Shown here: positions 23,031 through 60,236 of the stretch, in pieces
How positions within the stretch are numbered: the stretch's first letter is position 1
Layout: each line of letters opens with the position of its first letter
NCBI GenBank assembly: GCA_018818405.1
Contig: JAHIRY010000038.1
Location: forward strand, 35,449-99,448
Source: Patescibacteria group bacterium
Lineage (GTDB): Bacteria > Patescibacteriota > Patescibacteriia > UBA11705 > JABHMO01
Reading direction: 5' to 3'
DNA: 64,000 nt
Notes under the pieces: generated by a model
Told to the model about the DNA's origin: nothing
The model's database searches: none
What the model saw: only the letters and a program-made list of their open reading frames with translations
Program-made: the position numbers and the translations under genes

Positions 23031-23250
23031 CTACGACGACAGCAGACTCTGAATCGAGTTCAGAGTGACAGGTGTGGGGCGCGAATTACTAACAATTGCA
23101 ATGAACCTCGAATAGTTGCCACAGTTTCGCAAATACGCAAATGCACAGTTACTCTTACTCCGTCGTCGGCTCTCCCATCGTCACTCTGAACTCGATTCAG
23201 AGTCTGCTTCCGGTTCGCTTAGTCGATTCGCTTACAATGTCGTCATCGCG
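23031..23250. repeat. palindromic repeat family R4, units a (inverted) and b (direct) (core CGTCACTCTGAACTCGATTCAGAGTCT plus ~45-nt tail)
   Basis: 23045-23069 and 23178-23250 are mutually inverted copies; core is itself a 9-bp-stem hairpin. Confidence 0.8.
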
Positions 23251-23267
23251 CAACAACTCACATACCG

Positions 23268-23573
23268 CTAATTCCACGTTGCGCTCAAATCTTCAAAATT
23301 AGGATTTTCCTTTTTTATCAAATCAATTTTCCACGGCCGATGCCATCGCTTCAATTGTTTTTCTCTGGCAATGGCAGAATACACATCCGTAAAATCCTCG
23401 TAATAAACTAATTTTTGTAAACAATAACGAGCGCTGAATGAATTTGGATTGTATTTATTTTTGTGTTCCCACAAACGCCGCTCAACATTGTTCGTCACGC
23501 CAATATAAAAAACCGTATTCCTTGTGTTTGTAATAATATATACATAATAATTACGTTGAACAAATTTTCGCAT
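23268..23573 (-). CDS. small GIY-YIG nuclease (YhbQ/COG2827-like)
   Basis: YVYIITNTRNTVFYIGVTNNVERRLWEH GIY-YIG core; 101 aa; paralog of 33838. Confidence 0.8.
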   Translation of the reverse strand: MRKFVQRNYYVYIITNTRNTVFYIGVTNNVERRLWEHKNKYNPNSFSARYCLQKLVYYEDFTDVYSAIAREKQLKRWHRPWKIDLIKKENPNFEDLSATWN

Positions 23574-23676
23574 ATCATTTTTTAAATCATGCTAACTAAT
23601 ACTTTCAGAATAGCACAATTTTTTTTCGACCGGAATAAACAACGAAACAATCGCGCCTTCGTTCAGCGAAACTTCC

Positions 23677-23905
23677 GACGCTAACAGACTCTGAATCGAG
23701 TTCAGAGTGACGGGGTGCGGCGCGTCGTCTCATCATCATCATGATTATCCTCGTCACTCTGAACTCGATTCAGAGTCTCCCTCCGGTTTCACCTAGTCGG
23801 TTCCGCTACGACAGCGTCCGCCCGCCCCTCCTCATCGTCACTCTGAACTCGATTCAGAGTCTCTTTTCGGTTTCGCTTAGTCGATTCGACTGCAACGGCG
23901 TCGCG
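23677..23905. repeat. repeat family R4, units c (inverted), d and e (direct, tandem)
   Basis: 23677-23712, 23749-23819, 23833-23905 share the CGTCACTCTGAACTCGATTCAGAGTCT core and tail. Confidence 0.8.
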
Positions 23906-27800: not shown

Positions 27801-30800
27801 CCTGTTCACAAGAGGTATCGGTTAATTGATTTACCAATCTAAAATCTTTTTCTTTATAAACTTGCCCGCGAACTTCTTCACAACTAACGACTGCCTCAAT
27901 CCTGCAAATATTGCCTAAGGAAATGCAGTTTCGTCCTCCGCTACAATCATCGGCTGCTTCGCAACGGCCATATTCTCTTTCTCCACCGCAATAACTTCCG
28001 CAATCAGCATCCGTGGAACACAACCCTTCGTTCGGATTACCAAAACAATATTGTTGACCGCAATCATTGTCATTCACACAAAGATTGCCTGAAGTTACTC
28101 CTCCGCATCTCTTGTCCGGTTCAACCCCGCGTCCCTGCCTCAAATCAAAAGAATTATAAAAATTTACCGGCGCCATATCCGGAATCGCCATTCCGGTATA
28201 ATCGAGCGAAGACCAGCTGACATTTCTATTCTGATAACCGTCAGTTTCATCCGTTCCCTTCAAAGGTTTGTTCAATGACAATAAATTATTATTATCTTCA
28301 CCGACAATGAAATGCGCGCACTTCAATGTATCTTCCGCCGGACTGAGCTTGTCGCAAACTCCGACATCATCGCAAACCTCAATATATTTATTTTTATTCG
28401 AATCCCACGCCCAGTGACTGGACTTGCAATCGTACCAAGCCGCGCATTCGCGATCGCGGACGACTTTTACTATGGAATTCGCATCATTTTTTGAAGCAAT
28501 CAATTCAAATGTACAGGCAATCTGTCTATCAGTACATGTATTAATCTGCTCGGCGCGCGCTTCTCCTGCGCAAGTCAAATAATCTTTTTCAGCATTCACA
28601 CAAGATTCGACTTTTTTACAATAATCATCTTCAGTACAATCACCCACCCGCCCCAGAGCATAACTATCAAACGTCGAAGCATTCTTTGGCGGAACAGCAC
28701 TTTGTTTATCATTTCCTTCAAAATATGTTAAATATCCCTGCCATTTCAAATCAGGTTCGCCATTGGCATTTAACATAGAGGTATCATTCATCAAAATACA
28801 ACCTTCTTTACGACTGACATCTGAACAGGAAGTCTTGTCTATGTCTTCATTATTAACATAATAATAAGCTTTTCCTTTGTCTGACAAAGTTTTATCAGTG
28901 GGATCCACGAACGCGGTGCACAAATCCGCGCTTGACTTGCAGATACCGGCCCAGCCTGAGAAATCTTCATCATTTATTCGAATAATCTGCGAATTTCCAT
29001 CTTCATAATAATTCTTTGTCTCGCATAGTACATCCGGATCATTATCATTCAGTTTCTTTTTGAACCATCCAAATATACTCTCAGAACCTTGCTGAGCTTT
29101 TCTGTATTCGCAAGTTTTATCACCCGGATCCTTAAAATAATAAGTTTCACCTTTTACTCCCTTGAATTCCTCACATCTCAAATCACTATTAGCGCACAGA
29201 GGACTGTTCTCACTATCAAAAGTATCAGGATCCAGTTTGTAAAATACATTGTTCCATTTGTCCTGGGATGGAATATAATTCCCCTCAGCATCCACCATCA
29301 AAGTCGGCAATCCCAGAGCCGTACAACCCTTTTCCGTGTTTTTACATTGTTTATCTTTTGTGTTAACGAGATAAATCAATGAATCTTTTTCTATTTCTTG
29401 AAGGTAGCAGACACCATCGTTCCAATTTCCATCCAAATAACCACACATGTTTTCATAAGTCTGTGAAAGAGCGGGAGGTTCACCGCCAACCTTTGCACGA
29501 ACTTGGAATGTACATGCTTGCAAATTTTCATTCACAACGGCTGCAGTTCCCGGTATCTGGAAAAAATTATTCGTTGGAACTGCCTCCCATTTACTCATAT
29601 AAGAGGAACACAATTCAACATTCAACGGAATTTTCTTGTATCCTTGTTCAAATGGAGACGAACTGTTCTTCGTATCAATCATCGTCTCGCAACCGACCTT
29701 GTCAGCCGAACAGATATTGGTAAAGTTTTTCAGATAATGAGTATTCTTGCCGCTGTCGCGATATTCGCGGCAACCCAGCTGAGCTTGCGGAATTTGTCTG
29801 TCAGCTTCATTTGCCGGAGTATGGGTCAGCTCATTGTCGCAGATCGCCGGAGTACTCCATGAATTTTTGATTAAATATTTGAGATCATTTACTTTTGTGA
29901 TTTTGAAATTGTCGATGTAAAAAGTTCTTTCGCACTGGGACGCGCGTATGCCTATAACACCGGAGGCATAAGTCTCATCCACACTCAAATTAAAAGTATG
30001 AAACTGCCAATCAGCATTAACCGTGCCGTCACCCAATAAAAATTTTCGATCTCCGGTGTTTATATTTTCAACCGGCCTCACATCAACATTGAAATTCGTG
30101 GGATCGCCTTTGATCCAAAAAGAAACAACATAATCACCGACTGCTGATAAAAGCGCATTTTTTGTATATATTCTTGGTGATTCAACACAACTCAATCCCT
30201 CAATCCCGTTAACAGACTCTATTTCAGTCTTCTCTTCCACCATTAAATACTGCCCATCCGCTTGTGTCGTAAGCGACATTGGACTTCCTTGCAAACTAGT
30301 TACCTCTCCGGTCGCAAAATTATTCTCATAAACAATTTCCTCATCACCGCTGAAATTGCCTTTGTATTCTCTGCAGCCGGCGGCAGGCGCTGAACATTTC
30401 TTGCCTTCGCCCGGAATTGCCATGAAAACGCATTCGCCAGTGTTCCACTGCCCCTGCCTCAGTTCGCATTGAGCCTGATCCGCGTATTGCAATGTTCGGC
30501 GATAAGGATGACAATTTTCCGAACAAGTCAGAGTCTTTGAATACAAACGATAAGAAACTCTGCCGGCATCATCGTAAAATTCACGGCAGTCGGGATTTGA
30601 TTTTACAGCGAATATTTCCGCGTTGCACCGGGTTAGATTTTCTTCCTCTGCAATCGTCATTGCCGGAGCATTTCCTCCGAGTTCTTTTTTCAATACATAA
30701 TTCTGCAATTGATAACCGGAAACTCCGCCTCCGACCCAAGTATAATAATTGGCGCACTGAGCCTCGCCCTCGGGAAGTTTCTGGCATTGCCTCAATTCGG

Positions 30801-33753
30801 AATAATATTCTTTTGATTCTCCGCCTCGCGACAATTCATCCAGATTGGTAAATTCATCGCATCCGGCGCTGGCCGCGCTGCAAGTTTTTGCAGTATTCGG
30901 CATGAAATAAAGCGGAAACTCTCCATTTTCAAAATAAGTTTTCGACTGGTTGAATGTCGCATAGCCAGCGCATTGCTGAGGACAATAATCCGCGAATCCG
31001 GCAACGCCGTTGATAGCGCGTCCGCGATCAGTCGGCGTGAAATTCTGACAGCCGACATCTTCGGCAGAACAAAGTCCGGCAAAATCAGAACAGCCTTTGT
31101 TTTTCTCGGTTTTTACCGCATCATCGGAAACATCAATATCAGCCTCAGTCTTCGGCCTGCCATAATCCGCCTCTTCAATTGTATTGTAGCAACCCAAATA
31201 TTCAGGCGCTTTTTTCACATAAACAACATTCTGGCTGGCATATTCATTGAATTCATGCATTTCGGAAATTGCCGGCAGAGAAAGTTCCTCAACCATTACA
31301 TTGTCCACGATCGCGTCTCCGCCGGCCACAGCCAATTGAAATTGCAACTTGTCAAGTACGATTGGATTCGCTCCGGTCGATACTTTCACTTGCCAAATTT
31401 TATAAATTTTTTCCCAGCTGTCCGTTGCTGTCGCCGCTGTAATATCTTTATTGGCAACAGCTGACATGGCCAATCCATCTGCATCGGGAGCAACCAATTC
31501 GATCACTGCCGACGCATTGGCCTGTTTCTTTTTCACAAACCCGGAAACCGCAAAATATCGGGCTGTTTTCTTTGGCGCGATTTCAATATTCGGAATAATT
31601 AAATTTTCCAAAGCGGCTAATTTAACGGCCGCTCCTCCTTCATAAGACTCGGAAACCACATTTTTCCCGCCCGCCCAGCCGGTGACAATGTTCGTTGATT
31701 GCAATTCATCAATTCTCCCTGAAAAAATTTCAAAATCTCCGTTTACCACCAGATTCGTTCCCAATCCGCTCGCTGTTTTCACAAATCTCGTGCAACCCTC
31801 TTGATTCGGATTGCATTGCGCGTTTTCGATATTTTTATTCAATAAAATTTTTGAAGCATCCGCGTCCACCCAATTCCAAGAATTATCCGCCAATATTTTC
31901 TCAGTGCTGTACCACTTGCAACCCGCGTTCGTCGCGTCGCAAACCGATCGATCGACAGTGTTCATCACCAAATTAACGGATTTTCCCTTCCTCATCTGCA
32001 AAGAACGGCAACTGTCATAAACGCCCGAACATTCATCTCCGCCCAATCGGAAAACATTTTTCTCAGCCGCGCAATATCCCCAGGAAAGACACTTGCCCTT
32101 TGCATCAGTGCGCACACAGCTCGGCATATCAACGCAGACTTCAGCTCGAGTGTTCGAACCCGCGTCAATCAACAATGGTCCGTTAACCAACGCATTGCAT
32201 TGCGTTGCCGGATATTTCAAAATCCAATTCGGATCAATCAACTGCCTGAATTTATAACCCGCGTCATTTGGATTAGTTTGATTGAATTGACTGATTACAT
32301 AATTCAATGAGACAACTTCTTCCGAACCAACCTGACTGGCGGCAAGCTCCCAGCCGATTGGAATTATTCTCGCTGTTCTCAGTTTCACCAAATTGGAATA
32401 ACAAAAACCGTATTGATAGCAATCGGCATTGGAATTTCTCGCATCATACTTTCCGATCAAACGGCGCTTGCCGTCAATCAGTCCCTGATCAATGGCCTCC
32501 TGCACTGACAGCGGCTTGTCCTGAGTTGAACGGCGAACAGCATCGGCAAACGCATTATCCATGACGCAATTGTTTATCTGCCTTGTCCGGGGACAAGAGG
32601 TATATTCAGTCAATAAATCAATTTGCTTGGTGGAATAAGTGAAATTAACCTGCTTTATTTTTATTACGTCTTTTTCCACCTGCTTTTTCGTATCAAACAT
32701 ATTGTCAGCCGGCTGATAACTCTCCGAAGTTTGCACCAATCCCTTTTCAAAAAACTTCTTGCTCATGAAGTCAACAAATCCTTTTGAAATAAAAGTATTA
32801 ACAAAAGCGCCGATTACCGATTCCGGTATATCGGAAATCACATAACTGGCCGGTTCCATTTCAGTATTCTTCGCCTCGGTAATTGCTTGCAGTTCGTTTG
32901 TCATGTGTCCGCGCAAAAGGAAAGAAGGCGTTTTTATAATATCGCCACTCAGACTGGTTATCGCCTTTGCTCCTAAATTTTCCGTTCTTTGCTTTTCTTC
33001 CGCCATGCTTGTAATGCGCTGTTGTCTCTGCAATTCATCTTCCATTGTCAGATACATCCCGATGTCAGAACTTTTGCGATCAAACTTCACTTCAATGATT
33101 CTCTGCAATGCGATAAGAGTACCGGCGGCCGGATTATCAGAAATATTATCAGCTGTTCGTTTAACATCCTCGACAAATGATTCCCAATTATCTAACAAAT
33201 TACTTAAAGAACAATCCGGTTTTACCCTTGTTTTATCTTTTAGATATTGATTATCCAAACCAATAACGATTTTCAATTTTACATCAGCTCCGGGATCGCA
33301 AATATCAAATCCCAAATCATCCCAAAATACATCTCTGACATAGGTAATGAATGTCGCTGCCGTGTAATCCATTATATCCTGCTTGAATTTTTCCCACGAC
33401 TGAGTGTAAAACATCGGTCCCTCGCCCTTGTCGCCGGTAGTGACAAAATTATAATATTGAGACGCCGCTGTTTGCGCCAGAAAAACCATAGTATTGCGCA
33501 AAGTAATGGCTGCGGATAAAATCAATGCTTTCTGCAAACGATTTTCCACATTTTTTTGAGTTTTATCAACCGTTTTCTCAATGTTGCGCTTGACTTCAAA
33601 ACCCATATCCTGCGCATTTTTAGCGGGATCAATGACCGGCAATTCAGCGCGAGCCTCTCGCGGGAACAACATGCCGGCAGCAATGAAATTTGAAAACGCA
33701 AAACAAAACACCAAAATCGCGATTGATATTTTTTTGTTTTTATTTAAAGTCAT
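24832..33753 (-). CDS. giant (2973 aa) Cys-rich secreted/surface protein with CBM4/9-like beta-sandwich segments
   Basis: uninterrupted 8.9-kb ORF; N-terminal signal/TM; many Cys; NGDFE...GW CBM-like blocks. Confidence 0.85.
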   Translation of the reverse strand: MTLNKNKKISIAILVFCFAFSNFIAAGMLFPREARAELPVIDPAKNAQDMGFEVKRNIEKTVDKTQKNVENRLQKALILSAAITLRNTMVFLAQTAASQYYNFVTTGDKGEGPMFYTQSWEKFKQDIMDYTAATFITYVRDVFWDDLGFDICDPGADVKLKIVIGLDNQYLKDKTRVKPDCSLSNLLDNWESFVEDVKRTADNISDNPAAGTLIALQRIIEVKFDRKSSDIGMYLTMEDELQRQQRITSMAEEKQRTENLGAKAITSLSGDIIKTPSFLLRGHMTNELQAITEAKNTEMEPASYVISDIPESVIGAFVNTFISKGFVDFMSKKFFEKGLVQTSESYQPADNMFDTKKQVEKDVIKIKQVNFTYSTKQIDLLTEYTSCPRTRQINNCVMDNAFADAVRRSTQDKPLSVQEAIDQGLIDGKRRLIGKYDARNSNADCYQYGFCYSNLVKLRTARIIPIGWELAASQVGSEEVVSLNYVISQFNQTNPNDAGYKFRQLIDPNWILKYPATQCNALVNGPLLIDAGSNTRAEVCVDMPSCVRTDAKGKCLSWGYCAAEKNVFRLGGDECSGVYDSCRSLQMRKGKSVNLVMNTVDRSVCDATNAGCKWYSTEKILADNSWNWVDADASKILLNKNIENAQCNPNQEGCTRFVKTASGLGTNLVVNGDFEIFSGRIDELQSTNIVTGWAGGKNVVSESYEGGAAVKLAALENLIIPNIEIAPKKTARYFAVSGFVKKKQANASAVIELVAPDADGLAMSAVANKDITAATATDSWEKIYKIWQVKVSTGANPIVLDKLQFQLAVAGGDAIVDNVMVEELSLPAISEMHEFNEYASQNVVYVKKAPEYLGCYNTIEEADYGRPKTEADIDVSDDAVKTEKNKGCSDFAGLCSAEDVGCQNFTPTDRGRAINGVAGFADYCPQQCAGYATFNQSKTYFENGEFPLYFMPNTAKTCSAASAGCDEFTNLDELSRGGESKEYYSELRQCQKLPEGEAQCANYYTWVGGGVSGYQLQNYVLKKELGGNAPAMTIAEEENLTRCNAEIFAVKSNPDCREFYDDAGRVSYRLYSKTLTCSENCHPYRRTLQYADQAQCELRQGQWNTGECVFMAIPGEGKKCSAPAAGCREYKGNFSGDEEIVYENNFATGEVTSLQGSPMSLTTQADGQYLMVEEKTEIESVNGIEGLSCVESPRIYTKNALLSAVGDYVVSFWIKGDPTNFNVDVRPVENINTGDRKFLLGDGTVNADWQFHTFNLSVDETYASGVIGIRASQCERTFYIDNFKITKVNDLKYLIKNSWSTPAICDNELTHTPANEADRQIPQAQLGCREYRDSGKNTHYLKNFTNICSADKVGCETMIDTKNSSSPFEQGYKKIPLNVELCSSYMSKWEAVPTNNFFQIPGTAAVVNENLQACTFQVRAKVGGEPPALSQTYENMCGYLDGNWNDGVCYLQEIEKDSLIYLVNTKDKQCKNTEKGCTALGLPTLMVDAEGNYIPSQDKWNNVFYKLDPDTFDSENSPLCANSDLRCEEFKGVKGETYYFKDPGDKTCEYRKAQQGSESIFGWFKKKLNDNDPDVLCETKNYYEDGNSQIIRINDEDFSGWAGICKSSADLCTAFVDPTDKTLSDKGKAYYYVNNEDIDKTSCSDVSRKEGCILMNDTSMLNANGEPDLKWQGYLTYFEGNDKQSAVPPKNASTFDSYALGRVGDCTEDDYCKKVESCVNAEKDYLTCAGEARAEQINTCTDRQIACTFELIASKNDANSIVKVVRDRECAAWYDCKSSHWAWDSNKNKYIEVCDDVGVCDKLSPAEDTLKCAHFIVGEDNNNLLSLNKPLKGTDETDGYQNRNVSWSSLDYTGMAIPDMAPVNFYNSFDLRQGRGVEPDKRCGGVTSGNLCVNDNDCGQQYCFGNPNEGLCSTDADCGSYCGGEREYGRCEAADDCSGGRNCISLGNICRIEAVVSCEEVRGQVYKEKDFRLVNQLTDTSCEQDSDCTDACTVANPSGENCRCLSGICVQTSESERTFQEAAAPECRAYPKDDSPFPAGIAGTDLYVNANISWLDVDFAEINKNEDYGCYYREVQYGGGAITKYVPKTELYSPADPEQGFCQDSPDIQCQCDDFDYPQIDSSPMVKINNKTMCSSIQCSLNSSKPISKGNEPGLCMKKKGTAIDYHGWEGYCLQEDISLPKNNKQEEHPCITWYPTEALAGLQDLQNQYDSAGFWPQDYGFSDGSPYYCLKSSNWEKRQNYNQTEEGYRDCDGGALDACNGETKEVRENCLPAGLASSTAGIECDGNGSACVSGNPNVYTRWTADKLWDRLVGSSNVSAGTINANTDPFGGIGNTASCWTRDCGGEKFERPSCDKNYNIGGANSFEHDGGIFDHDGATDECSLEDEDWFKMTYQCKPINMPADQSAGWYKDAAGNTNAAIGEISKQSCDTAVGVSDENGKNKAFTNEIYKSVQIPDQPKCNPLGALALTGGIGETIYNLFLGAGCNQEENYPEGGIVYQSIDALKKYFAAAKTYYEMKIQNIEEKTCTSIHPEINGLSCTSDSNVCTTAQYPLECNILTLRHCNNQSGANSGNPCFWDTECVNTAPVVGNAGNRVYCTANLPNIERNEANCIWQKADRSILAEHWLFIDSYNFAQQEISAECYVGRTLENNSCPIEKYEHTPFGYVGTVILKEVVATNPPEMKSDPSASCSNIINIPSNADGIGYLNNPNKIWDISNEQKVGVPMIAAAIPSGRSDAKGNVLYGAIPNTMTIRGQTSGDIVSLDGQLAVTMNFYAWANDDQMPIRNVTIDWGERVQGVGVDGKYQNHKPRCQRPANEPLGICNGVSGLACSDDSACYDADDPRCEEGSDPSRCFFTGKCSDQKDDRFGDTTDACMESYFSYNNTYTCNLSDPVLKDCGTAGADPNYCRTTYQGNPACQYIPRVIVTDNWGWCNGTCGGADGCYNEGDFPLCDPLDEHGEPGTSFDGKIIVLP

Positions 33754-33781
33754 TTGATTTTATATTTATGATTTTATTAAT

Positions 33782-33860
33782 GTCGCACTTCGACAAGCTC
33801 AGTGTGACAGGGGGGGGGAAGCGCCCCCTCTCACTTGTCAGGCTGAGCCTGCCGAAGCCC
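33782..33860. repeat. repeat family R5 (inverted unit, G9/C5 hairpin, partial direct unit), downstream of the GIY-YIG gene
   Basis: GTCGCACTTCGACAAGCTCAGTGTGAC, AGGGGGGGGGAAGCGCCCCCT, CTGAGCCTGCCGAAG. Confidence 0.75.
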
Positions 33861-34143
33861 CGTTCGACAACTCCTTCAATCTTTCAATATTCCCCTCAAT
33901 TAATGCAACTTTCTTTCTGCGGCTCCAACCTTTTATTTGTTTTTCTCTGGCGATCGCGTCATTCACATAATAATGTTCTTCCGCATATACCAATCGAACC
34001 GGCCGCCGCGAATATGTATAACTTTTTTCGCTTATTCCCAAATTATGTTCATCCAGCCTTCGTTCAATATTATTTGTTATTCCCGTATACAAACTCCGAT
34101 CGCTGCATTCAACTATATAAACCGTGTATATCTTTCTAAACAT
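33838..34143 (-). CDS. small GIY-YIG nuclease, second paralog (ORF to 34167; likely start is MFRKIY at 34143)
   Basis: YTVYIVECSDRSLYTGITNNIERRLDEH GIY-YIG core; C-terminus is read through the R5 repeat. Confidence 0.8.
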   Translation of the reverse strand: MFRKIYTVYIVECSDRSLYTGITNNIERRLDEHNLGISEKSYTYSRRPVRLVYAEEHYYVNDAIAREKQIKGWSRRKKVALIEGNIERLKELSNGASAGSA

Positions 34144-34160
34144 TTGCAATAAACTTTTAT

Positions 34161-34311
34161 GTCGCACTTCGGCAGGCTCAGTGTGACATGAATTTAACTG
34201 TCACACTGAGGCTAAAAGCCTGTCCCGAGTCGCATCGAGCGGAAGCGTGCTATCATCGTCATCGCAATAACTGTCACACTGAGCCTGCCGAAGTGCCGCT
34301 TCGCTTAACAC
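34161..34311. repeat. repeat family R5: one inverted and two direct units (GTCACACTGAGCCTGCCGAAGTGC...TTCGCTTAACAC)
   Basis: 34161-34187 (inverted), 34200-34222, 34273-34311; 11-bp stem between the first two. Confidence 0.8.
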
Positions 34312-35162
34312 TAATCCCCCTGCTTCGCCTGTTCCAACGCGTCCAAATACATCTGCTTCAAAGTCGCATCATCGAATTCCTGCAACATTGATTCCTCTAC
34401 GCCCTGATCCAACAACAACTGTTTTATTTCCGCTACCGACAAATTTTCCGGAGCCGTTGTCGGCGATCCGTTCATTGAATCCTGCAAATCCGGATTATCT
34501 TTCAATGTTTGTTTGTATGCTTCGAGAATTGTCGCGTCATCGATCGCGTCAACTTGTTCTCTGGTAAAATTTCCCGAGCTGACCAAAATCTCGCGCAATT
34601 GCGCCGGCGAAATATTGTCAACATTCACTTCAGCGGTTGAACTTTGTTCCGCTGCCGCTTCACCGGTTGAACTGCGGAAACATTCCTGTCCGAGCGGACA
34701 ATTCGGATCTTCTCCTTTTGAAATTTCATCAAAATCGGAAATTCCATCACTGTCGCTGTCAGCCAAATACGGACTTGTTTCATAGACATACATTTCATCA
34801 AAATCATTTATCTGATCGCTGTCAGTGTCTTTGCCTTTTAAAACCGCCGGATCTTCATCGGCCGGATCAGTTGTTTGTTGTGAATTTGCTTGCGTATCCG
34901 TTGTTTTTCCGCCGATCAATGGAAATGGAATTGAAAGCGCTCTGGTAATTTGAATAAATCCCAGCGCAATTATGCTCAATCCGATAAACCCAATAAAAAT
35001 CAAAGCAACTTTTTGATTGCGTTTCAACGCTTCAGGCAAAATAAAATTTTCTTTATTCCCATCAAGTTTTTCTCCGAGAGAATTGCCTTCCGCGATAATC
35101 TCATTGCCGTTTTCATTATTTAAATCATTCAGCTCATCTTTCTCCGGCTGATTTTCATACAT
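34311..35162 (-). CDS. single-pass membrane protein with thrombospondin-type-3-like Ca-binding repeats
   Basis: TM helix ALIFIGFIGLSIIALGF; DSDSDGISDFDE, DTDSDQINDFDE motifs. Confidence 0.65.
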   Translation of the reverse strand: MYENQPEKDELNDLNNENGNEIIAEGNSLGEKLDGNKENFILPEALKRNQKVALIFIGFIGLSIIALGFIQITRALSIPFPLIGGKTTDTQANSQQTTDPADEDPAVLKGKDTDSDQINDFDEMYVYETSPYLADSDSDGISDFDEISKGEDPNCPLGQECFRSSTGEAAAEQSSTAEVNVDNISPAQLREILVSSGNFTREQVDAIDDATILEAYKQTLKDNPDLQDSMNGSPTTAPENLSVAEIKQLLLDQGVEESMLQEFDDATLKQMYLDALEQAKQGD

Positions 35163-35295
35163 AGTCTATTGGTAATTTTTCTATGTTAATTATACCACAA
35201 GAAAGCTCTTTCCCCAAAGGGAAAGTGGATAAAATATTTAAACTCGAAAAATTAAAAAATCTTATTTTTACAAACAAAATTTTTGAATGGCAAAT

Positions 35296-36138
35296 TCACC
35301 ATTTTAAATTCCGCGCCAAGAAAATCCAGTCTTCCACTGACAATTCCTGCGCGCGAACCGTCTCCTTCAAACCCAACTCGTGAAAAACGCTGAGAATCTT
35401 CAAAAGAGGAATATTCAATTTTTCCGCCAGATTGCTCTTTAAAAGTTTTCGCTTCGCGCCAAAACCCGCGCGCGCTATTTCAAAAAGCCGCGTTGAATCA
35501 ATATTATATTTATCGGAACGAATCCGACCGAGTCTGATCACCGCGCTTTCCACTTTCGGTACGGGAAAAAAACAATTGTGGCTGACGGAAAAAAGAATCT
35601 TCGGCTCGCAGGAAAAACGGACAGCCAATGACAGCAAATTCATATCGCCCGCGCGCGCCAAAATCCGCTGAGCCACTTCCTTTTGAATCATGAGAATCAT
35701 TTCTTCCGGCGGATAATCGCATTCCAAAAATCGTCTGATGAAATTGCTCGTAATATTGTAAGGCAAATTGGCGACAATCTTGTACGGTTTTCCGCCAAAC
35801 TCTTTCTTTATCTCAGCCATCGGTATTTTCAAAATATCAATGTTTTTTATTTTTAAATTTTCATATTTCTTTCCCAATTCTTCGGCCAAAACATCTGACA
35901 ATTTTTTGTCTTTTTCCACCGCGAGAACATGGCCGGTCCGCTCCGCCAGCTCAGCTGTCAAAAATCCGAGGCCCGGTCCGACTTCCAGCACATTGACGGT
36001 CTTTTTTAATTCCGCCGAATTGATAATTTTCTTCAATATATTTTTATCAATCAAAAAATTCTGGCTGAAATATTTTTTCGGCATCAATTGATATTTTTCC
36101 AATAATTCGAATATCTCTTGTTTCATTTTGAATAACAA
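35296..36138 (-). CDS. rsmA: 16S rRNA (adenine1518/1519-N6)-dimethyltransferase
   Basis: FSQNFLID, LEVGPGLGFLT SAM motif, NLPYNIT. Confidence 0.85.
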   Translation of the reverse strand: MLFKMKQEIFELLEKYQLMPKKYFSQNFLIDKNILKKIINSAELKKTVNVLEVGPGLGFLTAELAERTGHVLAVEKDKKLSDVLAEELGKKYENLKIKNIDILKIPMAEIKKEFGGKPYKIVANLPYNITSNFIRRFLECDYPPEEMILMIQKEVAQRILARAGDMNLLSLAVRFSCEPKILFSVSHNCFFPVPKVESAVIRLGRIRSDKYNIDSTRLFEIARAGFGAKRKLLKSNLAEKLNIPLLKILSVFHELGLKETVRAQELSVEDWIFLARNLKW

Positions 36139-36180
36139 AAATTATTTGTAATATTCCGCCGTCATCCGAAACAATCCGTT

Positions 36181-36238
36181 CGGAAATGTGGAATTGTAAG
36201 GGTTCAACATGTTGAACCCTTACAATTCCACATTTCCG
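36181..36238. repeat. 58-bp perfect palindrome (29-bp arms) between prfB and rsmA
   Basis: CGGAAATGTGGAATTGTAAGGGTTCAACA|TGTTGAACCCTTACAATTCCACATTTCCG verified base by base. Confidence 0.9.
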
Positions 36239-36262
36239 CAATTCCGTTATAATTCAACGTCC

Positions 36263-37357
36263 CTATTTTACGATGCTGCGCAAATACGATTCCATTAGCG
36301 GCATCAATTCTCCATCCAAAACCGCGTCAACATCAGTTGCTTCAAATCCGGTTCGATGATCTTTTACCAATTTGTAAGGATGAATCACATACGATCGCGC
36401 CTGATTTCCCCAGGCGGCTTCCGTGTATTCGCCGCGCAATTTTTGCCGTTCTTCTTCATGCTCGGCTTCAAAATATTTTTGCAATTTTGATTTCAAAACT
36501 TTCATTGCCGTTTCCTTGTTTTGCAATTGCGATCTTTCATTCTGACAGCTGACAACGATTTTTGTCGGCAGATGCGTTATTCTCACCGCCGAATCAGTCT
36601 TGTTCACTCCCTGCCCTCCGTGTCCGCCCGCCCTGAAAGTATCAATCCGCAAATCATTCGGATCGATTTCAATTTCTTTCAATTCTTCCACCATTGGCAA
36701 AACTTCAACCAAGGCAAAAGAAGTATGCCTCATCTTTTCCGCGTCAAAAGGAGAAATGCGCACCAATCGATGAACGCCGTTTTCGCTTTTGAAATAACCG
36801 TAACTGTTTTTTCCCGACACTTCAAACAAAACGCTTTTTATTCCAGCCTCTCCGCCGGATGAGATCGTGATTATTTTCGAATTCCAATTTCGCTTTTCAC
36901 AAAACCGCAAATACATTCTCAAGATCATTTCCGCCCAATCCTGCGCGTCTGTTCCGCCGGCTCCGGCATGAATGGCAACAATGCAATCGCCGCGATCGTA
37001 TTTTCCCTGAAACAACAAATCGATTTCCAGCTCATCAAATCTTTTTTCCAATCGGCCAAGCTGTTCTTCAATTTCTTTTTGCAGATTAACTTCCCTGTCT
37101 TCCTTGTCCATTTGCGCCAATTCTTCCAGATCTTTTATTTCATTTTTCATTTTTTCCCAATTTTCGATTTCCTGCTCAAAATCACTCGCCTCTTGACTCA
37201 CTTGTTTTGCTCGAGACTGATCGCTCCAAAATCCGGGCCGGCTCATTTGTTCTTGCAATTCAATGATTCTCTGTCTTTTTTCATCAATTCGAATAAGTTG
37301 CCAGACTTTTTGCAGGCGGTCTTTCAATTCTCCAATTTTTATTATTGTTTCATTCAC
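36263..37357 (-). CDS. prfB: peptide chain release factor 2, single uninterrupted ORF (no programmed +1 frameshift)
   Basis: SPF tripeptide, GGQ motif (GGHGGQGVNKT), RF2-specific N-terminus. Confidence 0.9.
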   Translation of the reverse strand: MNETIIKIGELKDRLQKVWQLIRIDEKRQRIIELQEQMSRPGFWSDQSRAKQVSQEASDFEQEIENWEKMKNEIKDLEELAQMDKEDREVNLQKEIEEQLGRLEKRFDELEIDLLFQGKYDRGDCIVAIHAGAGGTDAQDWAEMILRMYLRFCEKRNWNSKIITISSGGEAGIKSVLFEVSGKNSYGYFKSENGVHRLVRISPFDAEKMRHTSFALVEVLPMVEELKEIEIDPNDLRIDTFRAGGHGGQGVNKTDSAVRITHLPTKIVVSCQNERSQLQNKETAMKVLKSKLQKYFEAEHEEERQKLRGEYTEAAWGNQARSYVIHPYKLVKDHRTGFEATDVDAVLDGELMPLMESYLRSIVK

Positions 37358-37371
37358 AATATTTTTTCGTG

Positions 37372-38598
37372 TTATTGATTATCCTCCCGTTCAGCCAATT
37401 TAACTTTCAATGTTTTTTCCGCGTCTTTGTGAAAAATTTTCAAAGTAATTTCATCGCCCGGTTTGAATTTTGCGATAAAACCGACAAGCGAGTGTTCATG
37501 ATCAATCTTCTCGCCGTTTATTTCCAAAATAATGTCATTTTCCTCGATTCCCGCTTTTTCCGCCGGACTGCCGGGAACAATGGCAACACTGTCATCTCCA
37601 TCGCCGCGAACAATCAGCGCGCCGTATTCATATTTCAAATTTTCGCTTCTTGCCAATTCTTCATTGATTCCCGCATAACGCACACCCAGCCACGGCCGAA
37701 CGATTCTCCCAAAGGTTTTCACGCTTTCAATAACATTCTTCGCCTGATTTATCGGAATGGCAAAGCCGAGTGACTGACCGCCGTTGTTTACCGCCGTATT
37801 GATTCCAATAACCTGACCGGCAATATTCAAAAGAGGACCGCCGGAATTTCCCGGATTTATCGCCGCGTCCGTCTGCAAAGCTTCTTCAATCACCTCTGAA
37901 AAACCTCTGCCATCACCGGCAATGATCCGCCGATTGATTCCGCTTATGACCCCGCGAGTAACGGTATTTCTATATTCATCCAACGCATTGCCAATGGCAA
38001 TGGCTGTTTGTCCGATTTCAATTTTGTCAGAATCGCCAATATCGATCACCGGCAAATCATTGGCGTCAATTTTCAAAATGGCAAGATCGTAAACCGCGTC
38101 GCGGCCAAGAACCTTGGCTTCAAATTTTTTTCCGTCATTGAACACAACCGAATATTCCGCGTCAGGATCTGCCACCACATGTCTATTTGTCACAATCAAT
38201 CCGTCACTGCCGACAACAAAACCCGAACCTCCGCCAATCGCTTGCTTTTCCCCGTCGGCGCTCGGCTGTTGAAAATCATTTCCGAAAAAATCAAACGCAT
38301 CCGGTCCGGTCATATTGAAAACATTATTCACTTCTTTTGTGACAAGAATACTGACAACGGACGGAGAAACTTTTTTCACCACATCAATAGTGGAAGATTC
38401 TTCTGAAACTTCATAAACTTTCTTTTGGCCGGTAATCTGCTGAGTCAGATCATTTTCCAAAAATTTCTGTCCCCAAGAACTTCGCTCCAAATACGGCTTG
38501 ATAAAAAAAGAACCGCAAGCGCCGCCAAAAGCGCCGACAATCAAACTCACGATAACCAACATGGCGAACAATCCGCGAAAATCTTGTTTTGTCTTCAT
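37372..38598 (-). CDS. htrA: HtrA/DegP-family serine protease with PDZ domain, N-terminal TM anchor
   Basis: catalytic-His region GSGFVVGSDGLIVTNRHVV; GNSGGPLLN catalytic Ser motif; C-terminal PDZ. Confidence 0.85.
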   Translation of the reverse strand: MKTKQDFRGLFAMLVIVSLIVGAFGGACGSFFIKPYLERSSWGQKFLENDLTQQITGQKKVYEVSEESSTIDVVKKVSPSVVSILVTKEVNNVFNMTGPDAFDFFGNDFQQPSADGEKQAIGGGSGFVVGSDGLIVTNRHVVADPDAEYSVVFNDGKKFEAKVLGRDAVYDLAILKIDANDLPVIDIGDSDKIEIGQTAIAIGNALDEYRNTVTRGVISGINRRIIAGDGRGFSEVIEEALQTDAAINPGNSGGPLLNIAGQVIGINTAVNNGGQSLGFAIPINQAKNVIESVKTFGRIVRPWLGVRYAGINEELARSENLKYEYGALIVRGDGDDSVAIVPGSPAEKAGIEENDIILEINGEKIDHEHSLVGFIAKFKPGDEITLKIFHKDAEKTLKVKLAEREDNQ

Positions 38599-38752
38599 AT
38601 TTTTTTGCTCAAGAAACCGCTGATAAATATTTTTTTACACGAATTTTTTTATAAATTCCTTCATTCCGCCCGGCAAAAGAAAAAAAACTCGATTGAAAAA
38701 AATTTTTCAGAAGCTTCCCTACAAGTTAAAAATTTTTATTTGCTCATTATAC

Positions 38753-38785
38753 CAAAAAAAATACTGTTTCAAAACAGTATTTCTT
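38753..38785 (-). terminator. intrinsic terminator for the 38793 gene
   Basis: ATACTGTTT-CAA-AACAGTAT hairpin with adjacent A-run (U-run on the minus strand). Confidence 0.45.
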
Positions 38786-38792
38786 ATATTTC

Positions 38793-39062
38793 TCATTGGC
38801 CTAAAAAACCCTTCAAAAAATCACCCGGCACGCTCGAGCCGCCGCCAATATTCCCCATTAATTGTTTGTAGGTTTCAATCGCTTCGCGCAAAATCGGAAC
38901 CGCGTACAAAATGGCCAAAACCACCGGAACAATAATTATGACAAGCTTGATAATGCTGAAAATCTGCGACCACAAAATATACCGCTGAGTCCGAACCATC
39001 ATTTTGTGGATTCCTTTTGAATATTCCAAATTCTGACGCAACAACTTTTTTATTTCCTCCAT
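38793..39062 (-). CDS. small hypothetical membrane protein
   Basis: 89 aa, one TM helix; located downstream of the composite repeat. Confidence 0.45.
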   Translation of the reverse strand: MEEIKKLLRQNLEYSKGIHKMMVRTQRYILWSQIFSIIKLVIIIVPVVLAILYAVPILREAIETYKQLMGNIGGGSSVPGDFLKGFLGQ

Positions 39063-39202
39063 ATTATATTTTTATTTCGAATTTCATTTTGAGGTCGCTA
39101 ATTTACCGCCGCAGCGTGCGGGGTTCCGCTCGCAGCGGGACGAATGTCACAAATATTACGAATTATCCTTTGCAACTAAAAAATTTATAATTTATTATTT
39201 TA

Positions 39203-39345
39203 GTATTTCGAATTTAGAATTTTATTTAATTGAATTCCAGGCGCAAGATTTTGCGCCGGATTAGGCGGGTGCAACCCGCCTCTACAAAAATTGTTACATG
39301 CTTCATGTTATGTGCTCCTTGCTCCCTGCTCCTTTCTCCCTGCCA
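39203..39345. repeat. composite structured intergenic repeat, copy 2 (includes the R1 hairpin module)
   Basis: same blocks as 13421-13540 plus the AGGCGGGTGCAACCCGCCTCTACA module. Confidence 0.75.
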
Positions 39346-39348
39346 ACG

Positions 39349-40035
39349 CTACCGAACCCTGCAAACCCCGAACCAATCTTCAAATTTCCGACAGATTTCC
39401 TGCAATTGTCTTTTCGTATAAATATTCTCACTGATAAAATCCATATTTACCAGCTTTACCGCCGGACGGAATTGCTGGAGAAAAAATTTGTCAGCGCCTT
39501 TTACCTGCTCCGCCATTGCGACAATGTCATCTTCGGAATGAAGGCGCGGCAAAACAGTGGAACGAAATTCATGAGGCAATCCGCTCTCTTTTATTATTAT
39601 AACACTTTTCTTGATTGAATCTAAATCAACTTTGCGGCCGATAATTTGCGGATACTTTTCCCACGGAAATTTTATATCCATCGCCAGATAATCAACCAGC
39701 TTTGCCTTTACAAGATTTTCCAACACTTCCGGCCGGCTGCCGTTGGTGTCGATTTTTATGAGATAATCCAAATCTTTTAATTTTCCGACAAAAGAAATCA
39801 GATCATTCTGCACTGTCGGCTCTCCGCCGGTAATGCAAACCGCGTCAGTCAAATTTTTTCTTTTTTTCAAAAAATTCAAAACCGTTGACACCGGAATCAC
39901 CCGCGAAATTCCCTTGACAATTTCCGGATTATGACAAAAAGAGCAGCGAAAATTACACCCGATGGTGAAGATTGTCGCTGCCACTTTGTCCGGATAATCA
40001 ATGAGAGTTGTCTTCTGGAGTCCCCCGATTAACAT
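39349..40035 (-). CDS. nrdG: anaerobic ribonucleotide reductase activating protein (radical SAM)
   Basis: CNFRCSFCHNPE CxxxCxxC radical-SAM cluster; adjacent to nrdD. Confidence 0.8.
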   Translation of the reverse strand: MLIGGLQKTTLIDYPDKVAATIFTIGCNFRCSFCHNPEIVKGISRVIPVSTVLNFLKKRKNLTDAVCITGGEPTVQNDLISFVGKLKDLDYLIKIDTNGSRPEVLENLVKAKLVDYLAMDIKFPWEKYPQIIGRKVDLDSIKKSVIIIKESGLPHEFRSTVLPRLHSEDDIVAMAEQVKGADKFFLQQFRPAVKLVNMDFISENIYTKRQLQEICRKFEDWFGVCRVR

Positions 40036-40110
40036 TTGATTTCAATTAATCCAATCGAGTATTTAACGCGATTTTAAAAACAAAGAATTATAACAGATTA
40101 AACTTTTTAT

Positions 40111-40254
40111 CTATTTATTCAACATGCGGCTGAATGTTTTTCTGTCGCCGAATTCAGCTTTTTTTCCGTCATTCCACCGCTGAATCGGACTCAAGTATCC
40201 GACAACCCGTGAATAAACCTCGCATTTTTGTCTCTCAAGTTTTCTTGCTGCCAT
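40111..40254 (-). CDS. standalone 47-aa glycyl-radical domain ORF (the C-terminal tail missing from NrdD)
   Basis: MAARKLERQKCEVYSRVVGYLSPIQRWNDGKKAEFGDRKTFSRMLNK; RVxGYL glycyl-radical motif and downstream N.GK..E..R as in NrdD C-termini; not in the ORF track because it is under 60 aa. Confidence 0.6.
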   Translation of the reverse strand: MAARKLERQKCEVYSRVVGYLSPIQRWNDGKKAEFGDRKTFSRMLNK

Positions 40255-60067: not shown

Positions 60068-60185
60068 CGTCACACTGAGCCTGCCGAAGTGCGCATTCGC
60101 CTAAAACGCCATCACCGCCCGTCACGCTGAGCCTGCCGAAGCACGCTCTTCTCTGTCACGCTGAGCCTGCCGAAGCGCACCTTCA
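60068..60185. repeat. three direct R5 units (GTCAC[A/G]CTGAGCCTGCCGAAG...TTCGCCTAAAAC), remote from any GIY-YIG gene
   Basis: units at 60068, 60121, 60157; same family as 33782-34311. Confidence 0.8.
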
Positions 60186-60236
60186 CTTAAACGTCGCCCA
60201 CATATTACCGCAAACATTCACTTCCGTCAAGATCCC

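Follow-up and report, generated by a model that had tools for sequence, protein, structure and literature searches.

Two paralogous GIY-YIG nuclease genes of a Patescibacteria genome, each bracketed by its own type of hairpin repeat

The 64-kb window, by which we mean the whole stretch of DNA analysed, contains two genes for small GIY-YIG nucleases, each lying among short repeats of a distinct type, R5 and R4 (Table 1). In a domain search, the product of the R5-associated gene matched PF01541 (E=2e-18), and the domain spans residues 6–78 and 8–83 in the two window paralogs. The catalytic columns Y9, Y19, R29, H33 and E67 are invariant in a 24-sequence alignment that includes both proteins. The R5-clade protein is 100% identical to the NCBI entry 'GIY-YIG nuclease family protein [Patescibacteria group bacterium]', and an NCBIfam search returned no family for it. 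Both paralogs are single-domain proteins of 101 aa, and homologs are mostly 95–110 aa long; at E<=1e-10 to the R5 protein, its clade comprises 2,280 cluster representatives. The preliminary description of this DNA had called the proteins at 33838–34143 and 23268 paralogous, as their 40% identity across 89 residues (E=8e-18) confirms. In BLASTP, the R4 protein scored 87–96 bits against Azospirillum and Sinorhizobium proteins.

Table 1. Nuclease genes and repeat elements of the window
Feature	Position	Strand	Details
R4-clade (canonical Ssn-like) GIY-YIG nuclease gene	23268..23573	(-)	101 aa; PF01541 E=1.4e-16
Five R4 units bracketing the R4 gene	23045..23880	both strands	YGTC-ACTCTGAA-CTCGA-TTCAGAGT-C
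External R5 unit	33785..33809	(-)	loop CTTGT, 2 core mismatches; head-to-head with 33836-33860 (I17)
G9-N5-C5 element	33810..33828		spacer of the head-to-head units 33785-33809 / 33836-33860
Degenerate R5 unit TGTCAGGCTGAGCCTGCCGAAGCCC, downstream cassette end	33836..33860	(+), opposite to gene	repeat family D4
R5-clade GIY-YIG nuclease gene	33838..34143	(-)	101 aa, ATG at 34143, TGA stop 33838-33840
R5 unit, upstream cassette end	34164..34188	(-), gene strand	exact core match; 20 nt upstream of ATG
Degenerate R5 unit, 8-nt insertion	34199..34233	(+)	TGTCACACTGAG[GCTAAAAG]CCTGTCCCGAGTCGC, read from sequence
R5 unit 34272-34296 with genome-specific tail TTCGCTTAA (34300-34308)	34272..34308	(+)	inverted-repeat partner of 34164-34188
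Nuclease-free R5 array, 3 direct units	60068..60190	(+)	60068-60092, 60120-60144, 60154-60178

The R5 unit reads YGTCAC-ACTGAG-CCTGC-CGAAGTG; five units flank the nuclease gene and three more lie at 60068–60178, so that R5 is dispersed to a second locus. Its 24-nt core occurs six times in the window at up to 3 mismatches, against 0 expected from shuffles, at positions 33785–33808(−), 34164–34187(−), 34273–34296(+), 60069–60092(+), 60121–60144(+) and 60155–60178(+). Two degenerate copies, 33836–33860(+) and 34199–34233(+), complete a total of 8 units, a low copy number, with 3 of them away from the nuclease. The flanking units listed in the preliminary description are real, although its coordinates were about 3 nt off and its inventory overlooked the nuclease-free array at 60068–60190. 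The TGTC head of the unit at 34164–34188 is directed away from the nuclease gene, and both its placement and its orientation are repeated in relatives. With the unit at 34272–34296 it makes a 25-nt perfect inverted repeat, a pair that folds at −39 to −40 kcal/mol (z = −6.9 to −8.3), and it stands head-to-head with the degenerate unit 34199–34233 across a 10-nt spacer. The units 33785–33809 and 33836–33860, together with their spacer, fold at −22 to −23.5 kcal/mol (z = −3.4 to −3.8). Two stem variants are compensated changes: GGCT/AGCC in the unit 33836–33860, relative to CACT/AGTG, and CGCT/AGCG in the unit at 60155. The array at 60068–60190 has the S21 gene and hisS as its neighbours and carries tails at 60096–60104 and 60182–60190. 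The ends of the ORF had been proposed to be read out of the repeats themselves, and this was observed on both sides: an alternative GTG start at 34167 falls within the unit 34164–34188, and the unit 33836–33860 encodes the final 8 codons together with the TGA stop codon.

All five R4 units of the 64-kb window adjoin the R4 nuclease gene, at 23045–23069(−), 23180–23204(+), 23687–23711(−), 23753–23777(+) and 23837–23861(+). They have a perfect 8-bp stem, a 5-nt loop, a CGTC or TGTC tag and a CT tail, and form head-to-head dimers at 23045/23180 and 23687/23753. The two types occupy separate zones: R4 units are confined to 23045–23861, and R5 units to 33785–34296 and 60068–60178. Outside the units and ORFs, comparison of the R4 and R5 regions gave just 9–20 nt matches of no significance.

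Nearest-neighbour DNA parameters gave no fold for a single R5 unit (z about 0 relative to shuffled sequences), and pairing was therefore examined by covariation. Across 131 distinct units, the outer stem reached a covariation of 0.45 versus 0.10 when shuffled, with 0/500 shuffles reaching 0.45, and the value fell to at most 0.13 when the partner was slid. Pair types at three stem positions were CG/UA/GC, CG/GC/AU/UA and CG/UA/GC. By covariation, then, the outer R5 stem is a real hairpin; the hairpin described earlier needs correction in that a single R5 unit is not a Watson-Crick hairpin and reveals its pairing by covariation only. The TGAG/CGAA core, which is invariant, is compatible with tandem sheared G·A pairs in just one of the two strands; opposed pyrimidine-GA-purine tetranucleotides pair stably in this sheared G·A manner within the stems of DNA hairpins (PMC10085684). 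Its invariance could instead come from direct base readout by the protein in place of G·A pairing. The R5 tag is invariant among R5-type units. The position after the stem is C in 96% of 172 R4-type units; in R5-type units T (50%) and C (30%) predominate there. The tail TTCRCYTAR, which had been taken as common to R4 and R5, is real in the window but specific to this genome: elsewhere it is rare, following 1 of 276 R5-type and 5 of 172 R4-type units. A literature text search for the R5 15-mer found no paper containing it.

The pairing of nuclease and repeat extends well beyond the window. In 160 related loci from many phyla, ORFs were assigned to the R5 or the R4 clade by the better-matching profile. 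Among R5-clade ORFs, 72 had TGAG...CGAA units, 8 had none and 0 had CTGAA...TTCAG units; among R4-clade ORFs, CTGAA...TTCAG units were found at 72, none at 4, and TGAG...CGAA units at 0. Nuclease clade and repeat type are near-perfectly correlated, in an exclusive partition of 72:0 versus 0:72. The preliminary description had proposed that each paralog travels with its own diverged version of the repeat, an idea that a lack of correlation between nuclease paralogs and repeat subfamilies would have undercut; the separate zones in the window and the partition among relatives both agree with it. Units lay at most 300 bp from the gene in 72/80 R5-clade and 72/76 R4-clade loci. The R5 core itself was found within 400 bp of 46/80 relatives, at a density of 2.0 per kb near the gene versus 0.086 per kb far from it, and a general G·A-type unit lay near 74/80 R5 relatives. 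Of the R4 relatives, 72/80 were flanked by perfect hairpins with the YGTC tag, and almost all of these hairpins belonged to the CTGAA/TTCAG type. Orientation was likewise consistent: the nearest upstream unit was '+' in 44/56 (R5) and 53/63 (R4) cases, the nearest downstream unit was '−' in 50/60 (R5) and 48/60 (R4), and the distance from the nearest unit to the gene match was about 23–43 nt. Under strict patterns, a complete outward-headed bracket was seen in 33/80 R5-clade and 47/80 R4-clade loci. The R5-type hairpin ranges from Patescibacteria to Bacteroidota, Nitrospirota and Proteobacteria.

A system of this kind has been published. Ssn enzymes are single-strand nucleases, and repeats named for the Ssn-related motif (SRM) flank their genes (Chenal et al., Nat Commun 2025, PMC11893778); the SRM repeats are the same as the CGTC-tagged REPs that Di Nocera described in 2013 (PMC11893778, PMC3733652). 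SsnA of Neisseria meningitidis, a protein of 94 aa in which Y6, Y17 and E64 are required for cleavage, binds NTS hairpins with a CGTC tag solely when the DNA is single-stranded, and its cut falls upstream; the cytosine following the palindrome is critical for binding (PMC11893778). The locus order is NTS-ssnA-NTS, many co-evolving pairs are expected, and both the idea of such pairs and cross-specificity assays are already in that work (PMC11893778). Both window genes are flanked on both sides by oriented hairpin repeats in the same manner. The exclusive pairing of clade and hairpin type goes beyond Chenal 2025, and so do the covarying R5 stem with its putative G·A core and the finding, set out below, that the published motif and family definition do not cover these repeats and the R5 clade well.

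Membership in the Ssn family is defined by a cd10448 hit or by BLAST E<1e-10 to N. meningitidis SsnA (CAX49033.1). Our comparison used a surrogate canonical profile of 123 proteins around the Azospirillum, Sinorhizobium and Novosphingobium homologs, with SRM flanks verified for the first two; no Neisseria protein was among the 120 matches listed for the Azospirillum protein. R4 scored 115 bits on this surrogate versus 34 bits on the UPF0213 profile, so the R4 paralog very likely belongs to the Ssn family. The R5 window protein scored 65 bits on the surrogate and 75 bits on UPF0213, and median scores of the R5 clade were 60 bits (canonical), 70 (R4 clade) and 81 (UPF0213). By these profile scores the R5 clade is about equidistant from canonical Ssn-like proteins and UPF0213 and not clearly inside the canonical clade; the function of SsnA can therefore be carried over to R5 with less confidence than to R4.

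The repeats differ from the published definition as well. The SRM search motif, HGTCWYN(0-2)YYVSBRHN(0-5)WNVSBRGN(0-2)RNCYNB, had 0 matches in the window, 0 in 80 R5-clade loci and 1 in 80 R4-clade loci, and it does match the Azospirillum and Sinorhizobium flanks. The Azospirillum homolog (locus L084; an alphaproteobacterial protein of 36–44% identity) is flanked by four units CGTCATCCCCGCGAAGGCGGGGATCCAG, which fit the motif and resemble the Neisseria NTS. The R4 and R5 repeats thus fall outside the published SRM motif, within a kind of system that is itself already published. The motif is a search tool derived from GC-rich stems and not a functional definition.

The UPF0213 scores raise the question of whether the R5 nuclease is a housekeeping enzyme of the YazA/YhbQ type that does not act on the repeats, and near whose gene independent REP-like elements have accumulated. 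UPF0213 proteins are likewise small and single-domain, with a similar central motif (...YT..RRPV.LV...); the R5 clade scores slightly higher on their profile than on the canonical one, as does the window protein, and the best solved-structure matches of the R5 nuclease are UPF0213 BH0048 and EF2693 (1ZG2, 1YWL; E=8e-11 and 1e-8). Independent accumulation, however, sits poorly with G·A-type units placed up to 300 bp from 72/80 R5-clade genes in fixed orientation across many phyla, and about 17-fold denser near these genes than in the rest of the loci. Nor does the genomic context agree: at three loci, Firmicute UPF0213 genes belong to a tight trmNF-yazA-rsmI operon of overlapping genes with no room for repeats, and no flanking repeats were present there. 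The motif REKQ(I/L)KxWxR is common to the R5 clade and Ssn-like proteins, whereas UPF0213 has K-x-L-(S/T)-R and lacks the KxW motif of the R5, R4 and canonical Ssn-like clades. We consider a housekeeping identity very unlikely.

Two further identities were rejected. A GIY-YIG homing endonuclease of the I-TevI type, in which the nuclease is fused to a DNA-binding domain and the gene sits in an intron or stands alone in a phage genome, was set aside because the 101-aa protein is single-domain and no intron is present; on TIGR01453 (group I intron endonuclease), R4 scored 23 bits against a cut-off of 56 and R5 had no match. Rfam and tRNA scans of the whole window gave no matches; neither an intron nor a known RNA accounts for the region. 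A phage element was rejected since 2.9 million viral contigs yielded few units, the R5-type pattern occurring in 4 stretches and the R4-type in 99; no nuclease lay near the 4 R5-type stretches.

The repeats might also work in RNA, serving as terminators or attenuators or as hairpins that stabilise mRNA, a function proposed for classical REPs, with their proximity to the nuclease reflecting regulation of that gene only. The upstream unit precedes the ATG by 20 nt in sense orientation and could belong to a 5′ leader, and REPs are often transcribed (PMC3733652). Yet neither strand of the R5 regions carries a hairpin followed by a T-tract, which leaves no terminator-like site to support the terminator reading that the preliminary description had named as a counter-explanation. 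The array at 60068–60190 is antisense to both adjacent genes, and the RNA of these genes would carry a C·U/U·C core, not a G·A hairpin. The repeats match no Rfam family, SsnA does not bind RNA (PMC11893778), and a clade-specific unit type is unexplained by action in RNA. Action in RNA is, in our judgement, a very unlikely explanation.

Taken as a whole, the locus is probably an Ssn-type cassette, in which a GIY-YIG nuclease gene is bracketed by inverted copies of its own recognition hairpin. The recognition element would be a short oriented DNA hairpin with the YGTC tag at its 5′ end. By analogy with SsnA, the nuclease would be active only on single-stranded DNA, for example in replication, DNA uptake or repair. 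Once bound to the hairpin in the tagged strand, the enzyme would cleave this strand a few nt 5′ of the tag. For R5, the hairpin would take the form YGTC-A-NN-CTGAG-(5-6 nt loop)-CGAAG-N′N′, with outer Watson-Crick pairs free to covary and with two sheared G·A pairs from the TGAG/CGAA core on the tagged strand. The other strand would have unstable T·C and C·T in their place, and the element is therefore predicted to be strand-specific. The R4 paralog would recognise the Watson-Crick sister hairpin CTGAA-loop-TTCAG. With a G·A hairpin for one nuclease and a Watson-Crick hairpin for the other, each presumably discriminated by its own enzyme, the genome would hold two non-overlapping nuclease/hairpin pairs. 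The cellular role may be to limit recombination of incoming repeat-bearing DNA, as in Neisseria, or to propagate the cassette.

The last of these roles bears on why such cassettes persist. They may primarily be selfish mobile elements, in which SRM-gene-SRM is moved or copied as a block with the outward heads as its ends; the nuclease would make breaks, and host repair or recombination would complete the process in the manner of a homing element. This account is compatible with an Ssn-type cassette at the enzyme level and differs only on the reason for persistence. Four R4-clade cassettes (L131, L139 and L152, on three contigs of one sample, and L130) are 93–99.7% identical over about 375–430 bp, the similarity starting 0–17 nt 5′ of the left TGTC head and stopping 0–2 nt past the right GACA head; the 2 kb to either side are unrelated. 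One cassette lies between sufB and sufC in Azospirillum, the window's two cassettes occupy unrelated intergenic sites, with the R4 cassette located between two paralogous genes, and the Ssn authors remarked on the IS-like architecture (PMC11893778). Against mobility as the primary character, GIY-YIG enzymes act by DNA hydrolysis and are not known to carry out strand transfer, and inverted terminal units offer only one cut per strand. No empty site was found through rsmA homologs: the sole close match was an ENA contig, the only other assembly of the region, 100% identical to 25296–40938 of the window, and the next relative stood at 57%. The evidence for movement moreover comes from the R4 clade, not from the R5 cassette, and R5 units are only modestly more numerous in the window than nuclease genes. 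A primarily selfish element seems to us possible but rather doubtful. Of the earlier proposal of nuclease-repeat co-evolution in a selfish system, the co-evolution is supported, while 'selfish' draws indirect support from the near-identical R4-clade cassettes and has nothing comparable for R5.

A broader reading, which we put forward tentatively, is that R5 represents an undescribed class of strand-specific hairpin, stabilised in part by invariant tandem sheared G·A pairs and read by a sister clade of Ssn that lies outside the published definition and search motif. The two clades have no hairpin type in common, although one small genome can contain both. R5 and canonical pairs would then be mutually orthogonal, and the cassettes would be discrete mobile units ending at the repeat heads, the expected cut sites. 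No site-specific nucleases other than the Ssn enzymes are known to work exclusively on single-stranded DNA. Ssn enzymes are under development as tools, the value of which depends on many non-cross-reacting enzyme/site pairs. The R5 site with its G·A core is never found with the Watson-Crick type at the same gene, which predicts a new orthogonal specificity. Since the published motif misses two abundant repeat classes, the reported association of 71% is probably an underestimate. The results also connect the CGTC-tagged REPs described in 2013, until then 'orphan' repeats, with a dedicated enzyme in additional phyla, and near-identical cassettes that end at repeat heads offer a concrete handle on whether the cassettes move.

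Among known systems, REPIN/RAYT resembles these loci in having a single-copy enzyme gene flanked by short palindromes on which the enzyme supposedly acts, with inverted dimers, intergenic dispersal and co-diversification with the enzyme. The resemblance is one of analogy only: TnpA-REP belongs to the HUH tyrosine transposases (IS200/IS605 family) and its repeats carry a GTAG tag, whereas the enzyme here is a hydrolytic GIY-YIG protein and the repeats have a YGTC tag. CGTC-tagged REPs come closer at the level of the repeat. They have a CGTC or TGTC tag, a stem of 8–9 bp, a loop of 4–5 nt and a short unpaired tail, occur mostly as head-to-head dimers, and had no dedicated transposase found (PMC3733652). 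R4 fits this layout, and R5 has the same outline and a 5-nt loop, with G·A at two positions in the stem; because Di Nocera kept palindromes with at most 1 mismatch (PMC3733652), G·A-core units like R5 would have been discarded. The CGTC-tagged REP families described there are high-copy and dispersed over the genome; within the 64 kb examined here, the repeats (8 R5 and 5 R4 units) are few and centred on nuclease genes. The Ssn loci differ from the present ones in host, here Patescibacteria, and in that here the copy number within 64 kb is low and the nuclease activity is predicted from sequence; R5 in addition has an invariant non-Watson-Crick TGAG/CGAA core and no conserved C after the stem. 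Shared with Ssn are a single-domain GIY-YIG protein of about 95–100 aa, a gene bracketed by oriented (C/T)GTC-tagged hairpins, extra copies of the repeat elsewhere in the genome and a repeat variant that differs by homolog. R4 further matches Ssn in its 8-bp palindrome starting with A, its 5-nt loop, the C after the palindrome and its score of 115 bits.

We confirmed the paralogy of the two GIY-YIG nucleases proposed in the preliminary description: the R5-clade and R4-clade proteins of the window share 40% identity across 89 residues. The PF01541 GIY-YIG domain makes up nearly the whole R5 protein (E=2e-18), which is identical to an NCBI entry from a 101-kb contig, 'GIY-YIG nuclease family protein [Patescibacteria group bacterium]'. 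A homing endonuclease was considered and rejected, as the protein is single-domain and no intron lies nearby. We found no third GIY-YIG copy by tblastn of the window, and no Rfam families or tRNAs in it. The nuclease family is large: 11,889 cluster representatives match the R5 protein at E<=0.001, of which 2,280 do so at E<=1e-10. In many of these representatives (homologs P0361-P0510), the match starts 25-60 residues in, which fits gene calls reading into upstream repeats, compare the window's alternative GTG start.

Features of the window around the R5 and R4 nuclease genes, with other repeats and palindromes
Feature	Position	Strand	Remark
R5-clade nuclease ORF	ATG 34143 to stop 33838	minus	101 residues
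R4-clade paralog ORF	23268-23573		GIY-YIG domain E=1.4e-16
R5 unit	33785	(-)	core match
R5 unit	34164	(-)	core match
R5 unit	34273	(+)	core match
R5 unit	60069	(+)	core match
R5 unit	60121	(+)	core match
R5 unit	60155	(+)	core match
Degenerate R5 unit	33836-33860	(+)	within ORF 3' end
Degenerate R5 unit	34199-34233	(+)	8-nt insertion
TTCRCYTAR tails at R5 units	34300-34308, 60096-60104, 60182-60190
TTCRCYTAR tails at R4 units	23214-23222, 23788-23796, 23872-23880
C-rich runs 5' of YGTC heads	33810-33823, 60060-60068, 60112-60120, 23715-23727		on tagged strand
Cysteine-rich protein gene	24832-33753		2973 residues
Lipoprotein-like genes	22237-22923, 24046-24756		second contains (GE)n repeat at 24124-24224
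Palindrome	36181-36238		perfect, 58 nt (29+29 nt, no spacer); just upstream of rsmA/ksgA (35296-36138, minus)
Palindrome	47526-47585		33-nt arms, 91% complementarity, arms overlapping
Palindrome	47622-47669		perfect, 24+24 nt, no spacer
Direct repeat, 45 nt	8748-8792, 42431-42475		87% identity; GC-rich stem ATAAGCGAGATAAGTTTATCCCGCCCGCGGCGGGGCGAGTTAAGT; unrelated to R4/R5

The 24-nt R5 core GTCACACTGAGCCTGCCGAAGTGC occurs six times at <=3 mismatches versus 0 expected from shuffles, and three of these copies, near 60.1 kb, occupy the interval separating hisS from the S21 gene, where no nuclease gene was found nearby. All five copies of the R4 core surround the R4 nuclease gene, and the two unit types are not intermixed anywhere in the window. 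The R5 units around the gene stand in inverted and direct orientation as described: on the gene strand, two inverted units and a forward unit stopping 20 nt short of the ATG precede the gene, which is followed by an inverted unit, the reported G9/C5 element (a G9-N5-C5 spacer) and one forward unit. This order brackets the gene with two units whose YGTC heads (the 5' tag) face outward, each head-to-head with an external unit, and the R4 locus follows the same plan. The downstream inverted unit supplies the last 8 codons and stop of the R5 gene, in agreement with the proposed C-terminal extension of the ORF from the repeat. That the repeats are simple terminators is not supported, since no stem with a T-tract was found and the solo R5 array lies antisense to its neighbouring genes.

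The shared tail held only locally: TTCRCYTAR lies 3-12 nt after both R5 and R4 units in the window but elsewhere follows only 1/276 R5-type and 5/172 R4-type units. Just 5' of several YGTC heads we observed C-rich runs, such as nine C before TGTCAC, and CCACC or CACCGCC before CGTCAC; a cut of the kind made by Ssn, the published single-strand GIY-YIG nucleases (Chenal 2025, PMC11893778), would be expected within this stretch. The gene for the cysteine-rich protein begins on the same strand 84 nt past the R5 nuclease stop, with the external R5 unit and G9/C5 element in its upstream region. The lipoprotein-like genes flanking the R4 cassette (nuclease gene plus bracketing units) are paralogous (33% identity, E=7e-40).

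R4 is a plain tagged hairpin, consisting of CGTC, an 8-bp stem (ACTCTGAA/TTCAGAGT), the loop CTCGA and then C. A single R5 unit showed no folding under standard DNA parameters (z about 0), folding being limited to inverted pairs (z = -3.4 to -8.3). Aligned position by position with R4 (YGTC / ACTCTGAA / CTCGA / TTCAGAGT), R5 reads YGTC / left arm ACACTGAG / loop CCTGC / right arm CGAAGTGC, and its pairs in the R4 register are C-G, A-T, C-G, T-A, G·A, A·G and G-C. The window R5 units include compensated outer-stem variants (CACT/AGTG, CGCT/AGCG, GGCT/AGCC). Selecting solely on the tag and TGAG...CGAA core gave 131 distinct units, from related loci as well as the window, and their three unconstrained outer pairs showed strong covariation (CG/UA/GC, CG/GC/AU/UA, CG/UA/GC), with a score of 0.45 versus 0.10 when shuffled, reached by 0/500 shuffles and falling to <=0.13 with the partner column slid. 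The invariant core sets 5'-TGAG opposite 5'-CGAA, both pyrimidine-GA-purine steps; in DNA hairpin stems, tandem sheared G·A pairs form stably between such steps (PMC10085684, citing the d(ATGAGCGAATA) duplex). This sequence context suggests G·A pairing in the R5 core. The complementary strand would hold T·C and C·T instead, so R5 is expected to be structured solely on the tagged strand.

We searched related genomes for further nuclease-repeat pairs. With aligned R5 homologs as query, scanning a single genome for each species gave 80 loci, spread over Bacteroidota, Chlorobiota, Ignavibacteria, Nitrospirota, Nitrospinota, Lentisphaeria, Cloacimonadota, Vulcanimicrobiota, Proteobacteria and two other Patescibacteria lineages. 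The R5 core CTGAGCYTGYCGAAG (2 mismatches allowed) lay <=400 bp from the gene in 46 of them, at a density of 2.0 per kb near the gene versus 0.086 per kb elsewhere, and most other loci carried a sister core, CTGAGCGRAGTCGAAG, whose loop has 6 nt. Scanning metagenomes with the R4 protein also returned 80 loci, 72 with YGTC-tagged perfect hairpins flanking the gene, nearly all YGTC-A(T/C)N-CTGAA-CTTGT-TTCAG-...-T-C-T. All GIY-YIG ORFs of the 160 loci were then assigned to their best-matching profile, and units within 300 bp were counted: of the R5-type ORFs, 72 had G·A-core units, 8 had no unit and 0 had Watson-Crick units; of the R4-type ORFs, 72 had Watson-Crick units, 4 had no unit and 0 had G·A-core units. 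The locus sets were drawn from different collections, so host lineage could contribute to the split. Host lineage is disfavoured as its cause because both pairs share the window genome, each at its own gene. Thus the unit types split cleanly between two nuclease clades, even inside one small genome, and each paralog does have its own version of the repeat.

Loop length in the R5 clade, either 5 or 6 nt, tracks protein similarity (nearest neighbour with the same loop in 62/75, permutation p=0.02), a finer pattern that host phylogeny may explain. Across the related loci unit orientation is conserved: the closest unit upstream usually lies on the gene strand and its downstream counterpart usually on the opposite strand, at 23-43 nt from the gene match. 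External head-to-head partners flank both window cassettes on each side, and are present at ~29-41% of R5-clade cassette ends and ~9-11% of R4-clade ends. An R5-clade homolog with 46% identity on an alphaproteobacterial plasmid (Sphingomonas parapaucimobilis, L082, ~1350-1450 and ~1790-1830) has G·A-core units with the head CGTTCAGG rather than TGTCA, so the tag itself can vary.

Among plasmids, tblastn detected homologs of the R5 protein at 35-51% identity. Four units, CGTCATCCCCGCGAAGGCGGGGATCCAG, flank the one in Azospirillum lipoferum; they match the published Ssn-related motif (SRM) and closely resemble NTS, the Neisseria member, and the Sinorhizobium gene has an NTSvar-like unit. With these two homologs as stand-ins for canonical Ssn, the R4 clade scored 122-125 bits each way against the canonical clade, and the window R4 protein 115 bits against its profile. 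The R5 clade scored 60 bits against the canonical stand-in, 70 against R4 and 81 against the small UPF0213 profile (YazA/YhbQ-like); the window R5 protein scored 65, 71 and 75. Judged by these profile scores, R4 is very likely a new Ssn family member and R5 may belong to a sister clade. The R5 protein could alternatively be a UPF0213 housekeeping nuclease with the repeats unrelated to it, a reading at odds with the fixed, clade-specific bracket; in three Firmicutes, UPF0213 genes sit in a tight trmNF-yazA-rsmI operon with no repeats.

No empty site was found for the window cassettes, the sole other assembly of the region being identical. Near-identical R4-clade cassettes occur on three contigs that come from one sample and have similar coverage (L131, L139 and L152; ERZ808275) and at a fourth locus, L130, with 93-99.7% identity over ~375-430 bp (~positions 1945-2400 of each locus). 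Similarity extends from 0-17 nt outside the left TGTC head to 0-2 nt past the right GACA head, and the 2 kb on either side are unrelated, giving four unrelated contexts. This pattern has the signature of a discrete copied unit ending at the predicted cleavage sites, for the R4 clade only and with no mechanism implied. Units were disrupted at the left of L131 and the right of L152. R5-type and R4-type units were both rare in 2.9 million viral contigs.

The R5 and R4 loci belong to a published kind of system. CGTC-tagged palindromic repeats have 8-9 bp stems and 4-5 nt loops, form mostly head-to-head dimers and were concluded to lack a dedicated transposase (Di Nocera 2013, PMC3733652). SsnA, a single-domain GIY-YIG protein of 94 residues, binds their Neisseria member, NTS, and cuts upstream of it, acting solely on single-stranded DNA and on the tagged strand only; SRM motifs flank ssnA homologs across bacteria, specificity varies among homologs, and the NTS-ssnA-NTS arrangement is insertion-sequence-like (Chenal 2025, PMC11893778). 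Working from raw sequence, the preliminary description had thus found this kind of system anew; its observation is real and its interpretation essentially right. We infer all enzymology of the R5 and R4 nucleases. The published SRM search motif has no match in the window and matches 0/80 R5-clade and 1/80 R4-clade loci, and the R5 15-mer appears in none of the papers searched. The C after the palindrome, critical for SsnA binding (PMC11893778), is kept in 96% of R4-type units but not conserved in R5-type units. What the R5 pair contributes beyond the published work is a variant hairpin whose conserved core is non-Watson-Crick, a nuclease clade that may lie outside the published definition, and a clean split of two unit types between two nuclease clades.
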